A stretch of 64,000 bases of DNA from the IMG/VR virus record IMGVR_UViG_3300018495_000103; one strand, written 5' to 3'. The first letter of the stretch is position 1. Each line of letters begins with the position of its first letter. The translations under genes were made by a program, and so were the position numbers. Below the pieces are notes generated by a model, which saw only the letters and a program-made list of their open reading frames with translations, made no database searches and was not told the DNA's origin. Shown one piece after another: positions 41,617 through 46,479 of this stretch. This DNA is from a virus.

Positions 41617-42123
41617 TTACGCCTCCAGTTTGTAAATATATACATCATAGTCCTCAGAAAGGGCTTCCCAAATCATCGTTTTAATTACTTCCCAATTTGC
41701 GCCACCAAGGCCGCAGCCAATATGGTCAGGAAAGCCAATTTTACTGCCGTGGGGTACCTGGTCCCTAATCTTACCAAGACAAGACCAGAAGCCATCATAA
41801 GAAGTATATCTCTTACCATCATAGCCATAATATTGCTGTGCAAACATATTTATCACAGTCTTGTCTACATCAACAGGAACTAACTGAATCTCGCCCAGAA
41901 GGGTATCAGTCCAGTCGGGTCCGTTTTCCATCCCGCCGCACATTTGATAGATTTCTTCTTCTCTCTTGGTGCAGAGGGCAATATAATCTTCATATACTCG
42001 ATGCCATCTTGTTTTAATGTTCTTGGCGATGCCAGAGGCCATGCGCCCCTGGCAATTCACCTGATGGCAGTAATAATCCAATTTCGCTTCGAGCATATCA
42101 CCTTTAATAAAGTGAATACTCAT
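41617..42123 (-). CDS. macro domain protein (ADP-ribose binding/processing)
   Basis: IHFIKGDML...YYCHQVNCQGRMASGIAKNI corresponds to macro-domain motifs GDIT...NAAN..GGGV. 168 aa. Confidence 0.6.
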   Translation of the reverse strand: MSIHFIKGDMLEAKLDYYCHQVNCQGRMASGIAKNIKTRWHRVYEDYIALCTKREEEIYQMCGGMENGPDWTDTLLGEIQLVPVDVDKTVINMFAQQYYGYDGKRYTSYDGFWSCLGKIRDQVPHGSKIGFPDHIGCGLGGANWEVIKTMIWEALSEDYDVYIYKLEA

Positions 42124-43598
42124 TACGCAATCTCCGGATACAGACGAGCACGAATTTCGTGGAAATTTTCAATATTCTTCAGAAAACCATCTGCGAAGGA
42201 GGTGCGAAGCAGGGTTTCATCATCGGGAACCCATTCGCCATAGCCGTCAATGCATACAAACTCATCCTTGTCGGGGTGAATCTGAACCGCGCAGCAACCT
42301 TTATGGGACTTCTTCAGTCCGCCCTCGTCAGTCTTGGGGTCCTTATAGATAGGAACTTCCTTGCCGCCAAAGATACCGTGAGTAGCCTTCATTGCCATGC
42401 CCCAGGTATCACGAGTCAGAACAGTGAACTTATTGTCGGGGCTGAACAGAGCGTGGAAGCAGAAAGCACCAACACCGAAGACCACATTGGTAGCCGCGAA
42501 GCCCAGCTGAGCCAGAGTTTCGTAAATTTCACGAACCTTATTCAGAGTGCAGCCGTCACCATAAATCAGACCAATATGGGGGTCCAGAACCTTATAGCCA
42601 GCTTCATTGATGGTGCCACCAAACTCATCCCACAGTTTCTGGATAGTGCCGATGGTAATGGAAACCATGTCGCCAGAGTCAGGACGGATAAGCAGCTTGC
42701 CATTGTGAGCCAAAATTTCAGCCTTGCAGGCAGGAATGATATTGTCTACCATATTCCAGTAGTCATAGGTATCAGATACCATAGAGAAACTGGTATTGGG
42801 GTAAATTTCAGTCAGCATACGCTTCACAAAAGTGATTTCATCGCCGTCGATTGCGAAATTCGCAGCCATAACAGAGTGTTCAGTGGAAACGGCACCCAGA
42901 CCCAGCTTATGCTCGGCGCACTGTGCGTCGTAATAGTCGTCCAGGTAGGGTAGCGCAGGAATGGTAGAGGTCTTATTGAAAGACAGGAGCCAAGAAGCGG
43001 AGCAACGAGTTGCGTCTTCCAGGCAGCTCATACCACGGAAACCGAAGTCAGCCATTGCCATAAAGGGGTCGGCGCCGGGGGCAGTCATATCGTAATACTT
43101 CTTTGCAATCTTGTGGTATTCCCAACCAACGGTCGCATATGCACACATAGGCCACACTTCAGTCTGGAGCAGGCACTCAACCCACTGAACCAGCCATGCG
43201 AAACGAGGGTGAGTATTTCTCATCTCAACGATGGGAACACCCATATTGACAACAGTGCCTTCGGGCAAGGCGCGGATTTCCAGGGGCAGATAACCCAGCT
43301 CATGCAGTTCAACGATGCGATTACGAGCGACATTGTTGATACCCAGGTGAGCATCAATATAATGGTCATACTCATACATCACCCAGTCCAGAGGAGTGGC
43401 GAAGAAGCTGTCGAAGCCTTCCTTCATATCAGTGAGGAAAGGATGAACGCCCCAAACGACCATCTTGGGGAAATTCTCATTCATAGCCTTTCGAGGAGTC
43501 AGGTAAGAAGCCAGAAACTCCTGATTGTCAGGATACATCAGGGGGTGGCACTGCTTGTAAGAGTCGCTGTACAGCATAATCATTCTACGAAAATCCAT
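42123..43598 (-). CDS. nadV: nicotinamide phosphoribosyltransferase family enzyme (NAMPT/NadV-like)
   Basis: SDSYK, GFRG, SDTYD motifs of the NAMPT family. Start moved to ATG 43598 (AAAGGA RBS). The track start at 43670 overlaps the upstream ORF. Confidence 0.85.
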   Translation of the reverse strand: MDFRRMIMLYSDSYKQCHPLMYPDNQEFLASYLTPRKAMNENFPKMVVWGVHPFLTDMKEGFDSFFATPLDWVMYEYDHYIDAHLGINNVARNRIVELHELGYLPLEIRALPEGTVVNMGVPIVEMRNTHPRFAWLVQWVECLLQTEVWPMCAYATVGWEYHKIAKKYYDMTAPGADPFMAMADFGFRGMSCLEDATRCSASWLLSFNKTSTIPALPYLDDYYDAQCAEHKLGLGAVSTEHSVMAANFAIDGDEITFVKRMLTEIYPNTSFSMVSDTYDYWNMVDNIIPACKAEILAHNGKLLIRPDSGDMVSITIGTIQKLWDEFGGTINEAGYKVLDPHIGLIYGDGCTLNKVREIYETLAQLGFAATNVVFGVGAFCFHALFSPDNKFTVLTRDTWGMAMKATHGIFGGKEVPIYKDPKTDEGGLKKSHKGCCAVQIHPDKDEFVCIDGYGEWVPDDETLLRTSFADGFLKNIENFHEIRARLYPEIA

Positions 43599-43602
43599 AT
43601 TA

Positions 43603-43851
43603 TCAATTTCCTTTCTTTTTTCTCGCAATGCGGATTCGTTTACTTTCCATCTTGTTAGGAATATGCTCACGGGTCGCCAGTTCAGCTTTTACACGAGCCT
43701 GGTAGGCTCTCTTGGCGGAATAATCTGCATCTTCCCAGTCATAATCGCCCCAGCGATATGTATGTCGCAGATGTGCCAGAAGCTGGCGAGTTTTCAGATT
43801 TTTCATCTGCTCTTCGGAGAGGATTCCGCAGTCTCTTTCAAAGTTACTCAT
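43603..43851 (-). CDS. hypothetical protein (82 aa)
   Basis: ORF track. Promoter upstream. Confidence 0.4.
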   Translation of the reverse strand: MSNFERDCGILSEEQMKNLKTRQLLAHLRHTYRWGDYDWEDADYSAKRAYQARVKAELATREHIPNKMESKRIRIARKKKGN

Positions 43852-43879
43852 TTAATCACTTCCTTTACTTTCTATATAT

Positions 43880-45111: not shown

Positions 45112-45114
45112 ATC

Positions 45115-45633
45115 TTACTCTCCCATTTGTGCCTTGACGCAAGCATCGCCTGCAGCCATAGCTTCTTTCAGTGCCTCTTGGGCAACCTTCATATCGCAGC
45201 CCTCTTTCTTCAAGAAAGGCATCACATTCTTCATAATGACACCCTTATTACCAGAGCAGATAGAAACTGCGTTACAAACTCCCCAGTAGTTAATCATCTT
45301 GACAATTTCATCCTTGTCGTCGATAACCTTAGGAGCATACTCCAAAGCGATAGAGAGCTTCATCAGATATTCAGCCTTACGAGCCTTCAATTCTGCATCT
45401 CTCTTGGGGTCTGTTGCCCCATCGGGACAGGTATCGACCATCTCTTGGACAGTCTTCTTATACTTCAACATCACTTCATCGACAAAAGCATCTGTGATTT
45501 CTACTCTCTTTTTACCAGAGGTAGCAGCTTTGTCGATTGTGGCGACCATATCAGCCAGAGTCAAACGTCTCAGCTTATCGCCGTTTTTCAAGGCAGTTGT
45601 CATATCTGCCTTAATAGACTCATACTTATTCAT
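45115..45633 (-). CDS. GatB/YqeY-domain protein
   Basis: MNKYESIKADMTTALKNGDKLRRLTL... and C-terminal ...EIVKMINYW...MKNVMPFLKKEG..D.K.A.E.LK parallel YqeY. Confidence 0.55.
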   Translation of the reverse strand: MNKYESIKADMTTALKNGDKLRRLTLADMVATIDKAATSGKKRVEITDAFVDEVMLKYKKTVQEMVDTCPDGATDPKRDAELKARKAEYLMKLSIALEYAPKVIDDKDEIVKMINYWGVCNAVSICSGNKGVIMKNVMPFLKKEGCDMKVAQEALKEAMAAGDACVKAQMGE

Positions 45634-45651
45634 TGGAGTCTACTCCTTTCT

Positions 45652-46479
45652 TTAATGATATACAGTAATCCATTCCTTCCAGTAAGGGTCATAACCTTCG
45701 TTGAATAACTCTTCGGGGAAAATGGACTTAGTGGTATAGACATGGTCAACAAGACCATCAGTGCTGGCCATTTCACCCAAAATAATAGTCTTTTCGCAAT
45801 GGGTGACATACAGACTTACGCTCTTGGCGCCAGCAGCCTTAAGAGCTTTAGCAGAATGGTAGAAAGTACCACCACGAGAACAGATATCGTCAACGATAAG
45901 AACATTCTTATCCTTAACTGCTTCGGCGTTGATAATATCCAGGCCCTGAATCTGACCGGTCTTCCAATCTCGCTTTTTCATTCCAAAAGCGTAAGGAATA
46001 TCAAACCCACCAGAATAACGCTTCATAGCACCTTCATCGGGGAAGAAGAGTACATCAGCCTGAGCCTCAAAAATTGCATCCAGAACATAATTAGTAATGG
46101 GCATTTCTTCTACATTGTTCAGAAGGGCCAGGCTTACGTTGCTATGTGCGTCACGCACATGAACAACCTTGAAATTCAGAGAGTTGATAACTTCGCAGAA
46201 ATACTTGAGAGTGAAAACATCTTCATCAGACTTCACTCGGTCCATGCGGGCATGGGGGATGTAAGGCATTTCCAGAACAACATCGCTGTAAGAATAGACG
46301 CGGTCCAGATGGCGCTTTACGCAAATCAAAGAGAAAAGCTCTGCATCATTTTCATAATACCACTCGACCAGAATATTACCGCGAGTGTCAAATTCATCCC
46401 CATTGGGGTCAAACTTCATCAACAGAGTGCCATCGGGGAACTGACCCTGCTTAATTTCGACATTACCTACTTTAATCAT
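45652..46479 (-). CDS. prs: ribose-phosphate pyrophosphokinase-like enzyme (Prs family; PRPP synthetase or ADPR-PP synthetase)
   Basis: PRTase motif VLIVDDICSRGGTF, N-terminal Prs-like domain. GGAGG RBS. Confidence 0.75.
   Translation of the reverse strand: MIKVGNVEIKQGQFPDGTLLMKFDPNGDEFDTRGNILVEWYYENDAELFSLICVKRHLDRVYSYSDVVLEMPYIPHARMDRVKSDEDVFTLKYFCEVINSLNFKVVHVRDAHSNVSLALLNNVEEMPITNYVLDAIFEAQADVLFFPDEGAMKRYSGGFDIPYAFGMKKRDWKTGQIQGLDIINAEAVKDKNVLIVDDICSRGGTFYHSAKALKAAGAKSVSLYVTHCEKTIILGEMASTDGLVDHVYTTKSIFPEELFNEGYDPYWKEWITVYH

Follow-up and report, generated by a model that had tools for sequence, protein, structure and literature searches.

The window analysed here is a stretch of 64,000 nucleotides from the IMG/VR virus record IMGVR_UViG_3300018495_000103. 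It carries an island of genes connected with nicotinamide adenine dinucleotide (NAD+), all on the minus strand (Table 1). Two of them are the main subject of this work: one encodes a 275-residue protein of the Prs family, the other a 491-residue protein of the NAMPT family. An earlier interpretation made from the letters alone (the sequence-only reading) had placed both genes, and its coordinates were confirmed; the family scores are strong (PHROG 619, 256 bits for the Prs-like and PHROG 448, 493 bits for the NAMPT-like protein), and homologues are abundant. Metagenomic homologues reach 100% identity for the Prs-like and 98% for the NAMPT-like protein, on contigs of up to 406 kb, and for this reason we take the element to be a large uncultivated phage.

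Depletion of NAD+ is a common anti-phage strategy of bacteria. To our knowledge, the phage pathways known to counter it, the NAD+ reconstitution pathways NARP1, NARP1-AP, NARP2 and NARP3, have all been defined from cultured phages. In NARP1 the enzyme Adps (ADP-ribose pyrophosphokinase) makes the pyrophosphate of ADP-ribose (ADPR), ADPR-PP, and Namat condenses it with nicotinamide. The sequence-only reading had proposed that the Prs-like and NAMPT-like proteins may be such a pair rather than a phosphoribosyl pyrophosphate (PRPP) synthetase and a PRPP-using NadV, and had held that the sequence could not discriminate between the two. It did not list the nicotinamidase-like (PncA-like), macro-domain and NAD+ synthetase (NadE) genes of the island, which are the informative ones. 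Residues of the substrate pocket and the gene context turned out to discriminate well, and they suggest a variant in which nicotinate takes the place of nicotinamide.

Relationships of the Prs-like and NAMPT-like proteins

With TIGR01251 the Prs-like protein scored 83.6 bits, under the cut-off of 113, and the scores with the Prs equivalog models were all far under their cut-offs. The validated Adps enzymes of SPbetaL1 and ICP1 also remained under the TIGR01251 cut-off (106 and 98 bits), whereas E. coli Prs reached 423 bits. The protein shares 33-37% of its residues with the Adps enzymes of SPbetaL1, FADO and ICP1 (37% with SPbetaL1 and ICP1) and 27.5% with E. coli Prs. It lacks the C-terminal regulatory helices alpha11-alpha12, the alignment stopping approximately 35 residues before the C-terminus of E. 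coli Prs; loss of the C-terminal segment in Adps was described by Liu et al. (PMC13586617). The RMDR motif is the same as in SPbetaL1 Adps and corresponds to RQDR in Prs. The PP loop reads DDICSRGGTF (SPbetaL1 DDLSSFGGTF, ICP1 DDICDGAASF, E. coli Prs DDMIDTGGTL), and the alignment places equivalents of ICP1 Adps Arg87, His121, Asp161, Lys185 and Asp212/213 in the protein. Two further residues of ICP1 Adps were rejected as markers: Phe18 is the general Phe of the FxDGE motif of Prs, and Phe92 is not conserved in SPbetaL1 Adps. The PDB copy searched contained no solved Adps structure, the best matches being archaeal Prs.

The phylogenetic placement that the sequence-only reading had proposed as a check was carried out for both proteins by neighbour joining (NJ). 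The Prs tree contained 231 sequences. Of these, 228 were operon-linked Prs-like proteins, and they were separated from the three cellular Prs used as outgroups (E. coli, Sulfolobus and Thermoplasma) with 96.5% bootstrap. The window protein did not cluster with canonical Prs: it fell in a clade sister to the Adps group of SPbetaL1, FADO and Staphylococcus phage K. The Prs-like proteins linked to the variant described below did not form a group of their own in this tree (0% bootstrap), some of them joining the SPbetaL1/K type. Although the outgroups were few and NJ is a simple method, the direction is clear, and we regard the Prs-like protein as a probable member of the phage Adps clade and not as a PRPP synthetase.

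The best solved match of the NAMPT-like protein was PDB 9w5x (338 bits, vs approximately 170 bits for human NAMPT), which is the SPbetaL1 Namat (100% identity to OQ921341). The NAMPT-like protein shares 39% identity with SPbetaL1 Namat (332 bits), compared with 28% for its alignment to T4-like phage Nampt (approximately 135 bits). NCBIfam models of the PncB type (nicotinate phosphoribosyltransferase) gave 18-23 bits against cut-offs of approximately 300-500. With NF006629 the protein scored 413 bits, just above the cut-off of 405. This model was rejected as a subtype discriminator; it also accepts T4-like Nampt and two validated Namats (594 and 488 bits), so the pass is silent on subtype.

The NF006629 score, together with an NMNAT-like gene 2.8 kb away, could be taken to support a classical NadV, Prs and NMNAT set of the NARP2 kind, converting nicotinamide and PRPP to nicotinamide mononucleotide (NMN) and then to NAD+. 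We consider this very improbable, given that validated Namats pass the same model, that identity to T4-like Nampt is low, that the residue equivalent to human NAMPT Asp219 is missing, that most relatives have no NMNAT gene nearby, and that the phage carries a gene of the Adps clade, Osterman et al. having found no phage with both pathways.

The catalytic residues His241, Arg305 and Asp307, the last two corresponding to Namat Arg306 and Asp308, are conserved in the NAMPT-like protein, as are the equivalents of the stacking aromatic residues (Namat Phe189 and Tyr15'). The pyridine pocket is different. In SPbetaL1 Namat Asp215 is hydrogen-bonded to the amide of nicotinamide, Ala242 lines the pocket and Arg40 stacks on the adenine; the D215A replacement reduces activity approximately 8-fold (PMC12774641). 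In the window protein the Asp215 position is occupied by Ser211 and the Ala242 position by Ser238. Nicotinamide specificity of human NAMPT is defined by Asp219 (PMC7096376), where the D219S replacement causes a switch in substrate affinity and activity is lost with D219A (PMC4919578), and human nicotinate phosphoribosyltransferase has a serine, Ser214, at the equivalent position (PMC4442680). The effect of D219S and the presence of Ser214 make the Asp to Ser change meaningful, and the NAMPT-like protein appears to be an enzyme of Namat lineage whose pyridine pocket is of the nicotinate type.

The second difference concerns the clamp helix, GS-X-phi-X-phi-X-phi-TRD, which contributes to the adenine clamp (SCH motif). 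In the window protein it reads GAFCFHALFSPDNKFTVLTRD, with an insertion of 10 residues; the region of the insertion is GVGAFCFHALFSPDNKFTVLTRD (residues 375-397). The Phe at position 3, equivalent to Phe392, is kept, whereas the aromatic residue of position 7 is removed, the insertion displacing the Tyr396 position. The third residue of the SCL, which is Arg, Lys or Tyr in Namat, is Met39 (PRKAM) at the position of SPbetaL1 Arg40. The Ser/Ser pocket and the clamp features are common to all 120 close homologues (66-98% identity). Clamp residues Phe392 and Arg40 matter for the use of ADPR-PP, and not for that of PRPP (Lan et al.); the Phe392 equivalent is Gly in T4-like Nampts and Gln in PDB 9ke8, and a counterpart of Arg40 is absent from PRPP-using Nampts. 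The suggestion that the pair may be NARP1 was thus supported as to the Adps/Namat lineage and not supported as to plain NARP1, from which the pair departs by the Ser at the Asp215 position, the insertion in SCH and the Met in SCL.

Among the 150 closest cluster representatives (50% identity), 106 combined the Asp/Ala pocket with the short motif of Namat, and 44 had Ala or Ser followed by Ser ([Ala/Ser]/Ser, the variant), most of these 44 with a long clamp-helix insertion; the remainder of the set had other residues at the two positions or were misaligned fragments. In the NJ tree 53 sequences of the variant make up a single clade (57% bootstrap), which appears, with at most 21% bootstrap at deeper nodes, to be nested among the Namat lineages of SPbetaL1/FADO/K and of ICP1/Felix-like phages, with T4-like Nampt outside. 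Two T4-like phage Nampts served as the Nampt outgroup, and the KVP40 and Bas63 proteins were represented by relatives. A strict definition of the clade by pocket residues failed, three variant-like sequences having other residues or being misaligned; the clade that includes them is monophyletic.

Intermediates with a short clamp motif were supplied by a scan of metagenomes. In IMG/VR the close relatives of one short-motif protein (P0257) were at most 47% identical and nearly all canonical, and a second (P0270) had none. Every variant member examined had either Phe or Tyr as the Phe392 equivalent, and no Ala/Ser member had lost Arg40. Some of the metagenomic members combine the complete canonical clamp (Arg40 and GSYTYQYNTRD) with the Ala/Ser pocket in the same operons of Prs-like, PncA, NAMPT-like and NadE genes. 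The pocket change and its link with PncA and NadE are therefore independent of the clamp-helix insertion.

Two observations were made on other Namat homologues. PDB 9ke8, a solved Nampt, has 58% identity with SPbetaL1 Namat and a place inside the Namat clade, yet it is without both aromatic clamp residues (GAQTYQRNTRD) and may represent a reversion to PRPP use; it had no match of 60% identity or more in the phage collection. Several homologues (P0277, P0279 and P0372) have an insertion of approximately 300 residues exactly inside the clamp-helix motif, GS[FY]C...SHNTYQ-TRD, and the Cys...HN boundaries suggest that these insertions may be inteins.

Gene context and a predicted route to NAD+

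The PncA-like protein matches Pfam Isochorismatase (86 bits), and its best solved relatives are nicotinamidases/pyrazinamidases (1ILW, E 3e-15; also 3PL1 and 3O90), with which it aligns in the Asp-x-His/His metal motif and in the catalytic Cys of T-x-x-C-V. The macro-domain protein scored 113 bits with PHROG 335 ('phosphatase') and is 33% identical (E 2e-30) to the macro protein of Vibrio phage K354, whose gene lies between Adps and Namat; its solved relatives include an ADP-ribose 1''-phosphate phosphatase (6LFU, E 5e-5). By these matches it resembles Adpp, the ADPR-1''-phosphate phosphatase of NARP1-AP, which converts ADPR-1''-phosphate to ADPR (bioRxiv 10.64898/2026.01.28.702374). NadE matches Pfam NAD_synthase (173 bits) and TIGR00552 (170 bits, cut-off 64).

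Among solved structures NadE matched the archaeal 2E18 (117 bits, E 1.5e-32) and, with 103 bits, the Francisella enzyme 3FIU, presumably an NMN synthetase. This near-equality, together with the presence of a NadM-type NMNAT in the window, would allow a nicotinate route in which NadE converts nicotinic acid mononucleotide (NaMN) to NMN and NMNAT then makes NAD+. The absence of NMNAT near most related modules leaves this route scarcely credible.

Gene context was compared across 292 loci from IMG/VR viral contigs, GTDB genomes, JGI metagenomes and a few annotated GenBank reference phages. Each had at least 3.5 kb of flank on either side, and partner genes were counted within 6 kb with profiles made from the island proteins. 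At the 65 loci with the canonical Asp/Ala pocket a Prs-like gene was found 64 times and a macro gene 9 times; PncA, NadE, the combination of these two with the Prs-like gene, and NMNAT were each found at 0. At the 227 loci with the [Ala/Ser]/Ser pocket the counts were 225 for the Prs-like gene, 221 for PncA, 218 for NadE and 214 for all three, with a macro gene at 102 and NMNAT at 11. The association of the pocket with PncA and NadE holds across 8 clusters at 60% identity and in several gene orders, e.g. PncA-Prs-Nam-Macro-NadE (L010) and Prs...Nam-Macro-NadE-PncA (L001). PncA, the Adps-like enzyme, the Namat-like enzyme, the Adpp-like macro protein and NadE thus form a conserved module of five genes.

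These counts bear on the possibility that the phage makes NAD+ by ordinary NARP1(-AP), from nicotinamide and ADPR-PP, PncA and NadE constituting an independent, parallel salvage branch. The lineage of the two enzymes, the adjacent Adpp-like gene and the intact catalytic residues are what such a pathway would have. The amide-binding Asp, however, never occurs in the clade: it is replaced by Ser or Ala at 227 of 227 loci, and replacements of this residue (D215A, D219A) cripple Namat and NAMPT. Moreover, the link with PncA and NadE tracks the pocket change and not NARP1 in general, because none of the 65 canonical loci has them. We regard ordinary NARP1(-AP) as improbable.

GTDB genomes contain the same genes as a tight pncA-prs-like-nampt-like-nadE operon, mostly in Lachnospiraceae and other Clostridia. 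The bacterial cassette is often followed by a gene for the regulator NrtR (Nudix and NrtR_WHD domains), at 44 of 65 genome loci vs 0 of 148 viral loci. The effector of NrtR is ADPR (PMC2330246). Two gut Firmicutes isolates, Pseudoruminococcus massiliensis and Clostridium sp., carry the pncA-prs-like-nampt-like-nadE-nrtR operon on the chromosome (Table 1). In the former, NadE is the glutamine-dependent form of 648 residues, and within approximately 2.4 kb downstream of the operon there are open reading frames (ORFs) whose N-termini, judged by eye, resemble Asd and DapA.

Contigs of uncultivated gut phages that carry the variant number in the hundreds, and genomes of gut Firmicutes have it as well. 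A search of 50,697 GenBank phage records with a variant representative gave a single close match, at 58% identity, to MT835544, which comes from a gut metagenome and is marked unverified; the next-best matches were at most 42% identical, and those identified were canonical Namats.

Taken together, pocket, lineage and context suggest that the module rebuilds NAD+ from the products of NADases through the deamidated series, as a deamidated NARP1(-AP); we give this reading a probability of about 0.5. All substrate assignments in the following scheme are inferred. NADases or RES-type enzymes would release nicotinamide and ADPR, or ADPR-1''-phosphate, and the macro-domain protein would convert the latter to ADPR. 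PncA would deamidate nicotinamide to nicotinate, and the Adps-like enzyme would make ADPR-PP from ADPR and ATP. The Namat-like enzyme, through its Ser/Ser pocket, would then join nicotinate directly to ADPR-PP, giving nicotinic acid adenine dinucleotide (NaAD), which NadE would convert to NAD+.

The ribosyl donor is the point at which the deamidated ADPR-PP route can be set against a PRPP-based Preiss-Handler route. In the latter the Prs-like protein would be a dedicated PRPP synthetase, the NAMPT-like enzyme, as a non-orthologous nicotinate phosphoribosyltransferase, would make NaMN from nicotinate and PRPP, and host NadD or the phage NMNAT followed by NadE would complete the synthesis. The Ser pocket and the link with PncA and NadE suit any nicotinate route equally, and prs-nadV operons have long been interpreted as supplying PRPP to NadV (PMC2330246). 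ADPR-PP is favoured as donor because the clamp residues Phe392 and Arg40, which serve ADPR-PP use only, are conserved in variant members, and because members with the full Namat clamp and the Ala/Ser pocket share the operons with PncA and NadE. The Prs-like protein, nested among validated Adps and not among Prs, points the same way, and the adjacent Adpp-like macro gene, a frequent neighbour, points to ADPR. An adenylyltransferase gene (NMNAT or NadD type) is lacking nearby at 216 of the 227 variant loci, and the module would be self-sufficient only if the dinucleotide were formed directly. With this evidence the PRPP-based route appears unlikely, although as the main rival it retains appreciable weight.

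Several points weigh against the deamidated ADPR-PP route. The clamp of the window sub-clade is non-canonical, with Met in place of Arg40 and the Tyr396 position displaced by the insertion, so the donor can be assigned with less confidence here than in the short-motif relatives. SPbetaL1 Namat also uses PRPP in vitro (PMC12774641), which makes PRPP use by the window enzyme possible. The assignment of the Prs-like protein to Adps rather than Prs stands on its clade and motifs, in NJ trees with three cellular outgroups, and the bootstrap value of 57% for the variant clade goes with values of at most 21% at deeper nodes. The host certainly has NadD; with the NMNAT-like gene of the phage this makes a mononucleotide route feasible. 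Compared with NARP1, the route from nicotinate would need an additional ATP and two additional enzymes, for no evident advantage. Finally, the 292 loci are highly redundant gut sequences, and the profiles with which PncA and NadE were counted were built from variant loci.

The variant pathway is so far undescribed in the searchable literature. In the accessible literature on NARP pathways, coverage of which was incomplete, so that a prior description is possible, we found no NadE, PncA or nicotinic acid in this context. Within this literature no paper brought NARP1 and NadE together, and the NARP3 paper, which mentions nicotinic acid twice, was the only one to bring together NARP1 and nicotinic acid. 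The 2008 survey of NrtR regulons lists prs-nadV and pncA-pncB-nadD-nadE operons and no pncA-prs-nadV-like-nadE operon (PMC2330246). With somewhat less than even confidence we propose that the module represents a fourth phage pathway of NAD+ reconstitution, in which a nicotinate ADP-ribose transferase bypasses NaMN and NadD, and that the cassette is an operon of gut Clostridia/Lachnospiraceae, linked to the ADPR-responsive NrtR, that was captured by large gut phages. If this is true, the transferase has a new chemistry (ADPR-PP and nicotinate to NaAD), and the occurrence of a Prs paralogue, a NadV-like gene, pncA and nadE in one operon is explained. The distinction between Asp/Ala and [Ala/Ser]/Ser pockets would then split proteins that are now uniformly labelled 'nicotinamide/nicotinate phosphoribosyltransferase', and the NAD salvage capacity of gut bacteria would be reconstructed differently.

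Layout of the island and its neighbourhood

Table 1. Features of the island and its surroundings, with the two isolate operons (positions in the window, except for the isolate operons, which are numbered in their own loci)
Feature	Position	Strand	Size or remark
Vault-like protein gene	47373-49889	-	838 aa (amino acids)
Terminator-like hairpin; promoter-like site	47337-47360; 47306-47334	-	start of PncA/Prs-like unit
Nicotinamidase-like (PncA-like) gene	46690-47280	-	196 aa; first gene after the promoter-like site
Prs-like gene	45652-46479	-	275 aa
YqeY-like gene	45115-45633	-	172 aa
Sir2-family NAD-dependent deacylase gene	44338-45111	-	257 aa
Lipoprotein-like small ORF	43940-44341	-	133 aa
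Terminator-like hairpin; promoter-like site	43909-43937; 43880-43908	-	divides Prs-like unit from NAMPT-like unit
ORF, no Pfam match	43603-43851	-	82 aa; directly upstream of NAMPT-like gene
NAMPT-like gene	42123-43598	-	491 aa
Macro-domain gene	41617-42123	-	168 aa; start overlaps NAMPT-like stop
NadE gene (NH3-dependent NAD+ synthetase)	40808-41614	-	268 aa
NADAR-domain gene	40280-40795	-	171 aa
AAA_28 P-loop kinase-like gene	39752-40279	-	175 aa
Terminator-like hairpin; promoter-like site	39742-39764; 39713-39741	-	after AAA_28 kinase-like gene
NadM/archaeal-type NMNAT-like gene	38787-39365	-	192 aa; next transcription unit
Overlapping long ORFs	34001-35695; 34118-35626	+; -	in stretch of raised G+C
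14 promoter-like motif sites	7240, 14543, 16955, 28561, 37824, 39713, 43880, 47306, 49924, 53606, 54829, 57415, 58822, 62290	-	
pncA-prs-like-nampt-like-nadE-nrtR operon, Pseudoruminococcus massiliensis	6614-12303 (L281)		
pncA-prs-like-nampt-like-nadE-nrtR operon, Clostridium sp.	6630-11062 (L280)		

The sequence-only reading had put the Prs-like and NAMPT-like genes in the same operon, separated by the Sir2, lipoprotein and YqeY genes. The three genes are there, together with an unlisted ORF of 82 residues. A single operon is not strictly supported: between the lipoprotein-like gene and the 82-residue ORF there is a terminator-like hairpin (stem of 13 pairs, 6 of them G-C, and a run of T) directly followed by a promoter-like site (TTGATT-N17-TATAAT with the extended -10 TG). 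The TTGATT-N17-TATAAT sequence occurs 14 times in the window vs 0.02 expected by chance, always on the gene strand; it has the look of a promoter class specific to the phage, dividing the genome into short units. Its full form, TTGATTTTTATAAAAAAATATG(T/A)TATAAT, is highly conserved and includes the extended -10 element; in the stretch scanned a terminator hairpin rich in G+C directly precedes at least three copies. The Prs-like and NAMPT-like genes are thus probably in neighbouring transcription units with one shared promoter type, and the module appears to be driven by two copies of the repeated promoter.

The mechanical ORF of the NAMPT-like gene reaches a GTG at 43670, and the gene calls of near-identical contigs take the start that gives 491 residues. 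Relatives such as L010 have nothing between the Prs-like and NAMPT-like genes; the YqeY, Sir2 and lipoprotein-like genes and the 82-residue ORF are therefore regarded as insertions in this phage lineage. Sir2 (Pfam SIR2, 153 bits; NCBIfam deacylase equivalog NF001752, 253.7 bits, cut-off 221) is present at only 7 of 248 viral loci. Within an island predicted to rebuild NAD+ it would consume NAD+, releasing nicotinamide and O-acyl-ADPR. The YqeY-like protein is exactly at the Pfam cut-off (27 bits), and its gene occurs in few related loci only. The lipoprotein-like ORF has a signal/lipobox-like N-terminus, is conserved in close relatives only and had no match in Pfam, NCBIfam or PHROG; the 82-residue ORF had no Pfam match and is called as a gene on related contigs.

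On the other side of the module the NADAR gene (Pfam NADAR, 113 bits) is a frequent accessory; of the 248 viral loci 34 have it, and nearly all of these belong to the variant type. The AAA_28 kinase-like protein (Pfam AAA_28, 42.5 bits) had no solved relative at E <= 0.01; it may be a nicotinamide riboside kinase of the NadR type, an identification that drew no support from this search. The NMNAT-like protein resembles the NMN adenylyltransferases 1F9A and 1EJ2 (E approximately 1e-8, HxGH aligned; Pfam CTP_transf_like, 25.7 bits). The sequence-only reading had taken this gene to lie upstream and to argue for the NMN route; in the direction of transcription it is downstream of the NAMPT-like gene, and NMNAT occurs at only 11 of 227 variant loci, so that the gene is a lineage-specific addition outside the conserved core. 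The kinase-like and NMNAT-like genes stand close together, like a split NadR, and by this analogy the pair hints at an additional, NARP3-like nicotinamide-riboside route in the same phage.

Directly upstream of the island lies a gene whose product has the shoulder and repeat domains of Major Vault Protein (Pfam MVP_shoulder, 83 bits). Several contigs of related phages have this gene at the same position, and phages seldom encode vault-like proteins. No tRNA or tmRNA gene was found in the search of the window (1-64000), and its gene-like long ORFs are all on the minus strand. Between 34000 and 36000 the G+C content rises to 0.49, vs 0.36 over the preceding 12 kb, and long ORFs overlap there on opposite strands.

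Comparison with known systems

The module shares with the Preiss-Handler pathway (PncA-PncB-NadD-NadE) a nicotinamidase as first and an NAD synthetase as last enzyme, and nicotinate as predicted pyridine substrate. It differs in that the transferase is of the NAMPT/Namat and not of the PncB type, NadD is not part of the module and an Adps-clade enzyme is involved. A Prs paralogue beside a NadV-family gene is also seen in the NrtR-regulated prs-nadV operons (Rodionov et al. 2008) and in the bacterial NARP1 of Paenibacillus foliorum (Lan et al. 2026), and bacterial copies of the variant carry an NrtR gene at the operon end. Unlike the described prs-nadV(-nrtR) operons, the variant has the arrangement pncA-prs-nadV-like-nadE(-nrtR) and a Ser pocket, and its phage copies are without NrtR (0 of 148).

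NARP2 (KVP40 Nampt and Nmnat) resembles the window in having a NAMPT-fold enzyme and an NMNAT-like gene on one phage. Unlike in NARP2, the Nampt-like protein of the window, at 28% identity to T4-like Nampt, is without the Asp219 equivalent and has the clamp Phe, an Adps-clade gene is present and NMNAT is not conserved in relatives. NARP1-AP (Vibrio phage Gary; bioRxiv 10.64898/2026.01.28.702374) is recognized by a Poa1p-like macro gene within two genes, and here the macro gene, with a predicted phosphatase role, is attached directly to the Namat-like gene. It follows the Namat-like gene, however, whereas in NARP1-AP it lies between Adps and Namat; further differences are the presence of PncA and NadE and the altered pocket.

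With NARP1 (SPbetaL1, Bas63, FADO and ICP1; Osterman et al. 2024, Lan et al. 2026, Liu et al. 2026) the window shares the pair itself, a PRPS-like protein of the Adps clade and a NAMPT-fold protein of the Namat radiation encoded on a phage. An Adps homologue within 10 genes is the mark of NARP1 used by Osterman et al., and the Prs-like gene is five genes, or 2.05 kb, upstream of the NAMPT-like gene. The pair keeps the catalytic residues, the Phe392 equivalent, the Adps-type PP loop and RxDR, and is without the C-terminal helices of Prs. It departs from NARP1 in the pocket (Ser/Ser, vs Asp/Ala), in the SCH motif interrupted by the 10-residue insertion, in the Met at the Arg40 position of the SCL and in its layout, the two genes being separated by four genes and a terminator/promoter pair. 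Where canonical NARP1 has neither PncA nor NadE (0 of 65 loci), the variant has both as obligate companions.

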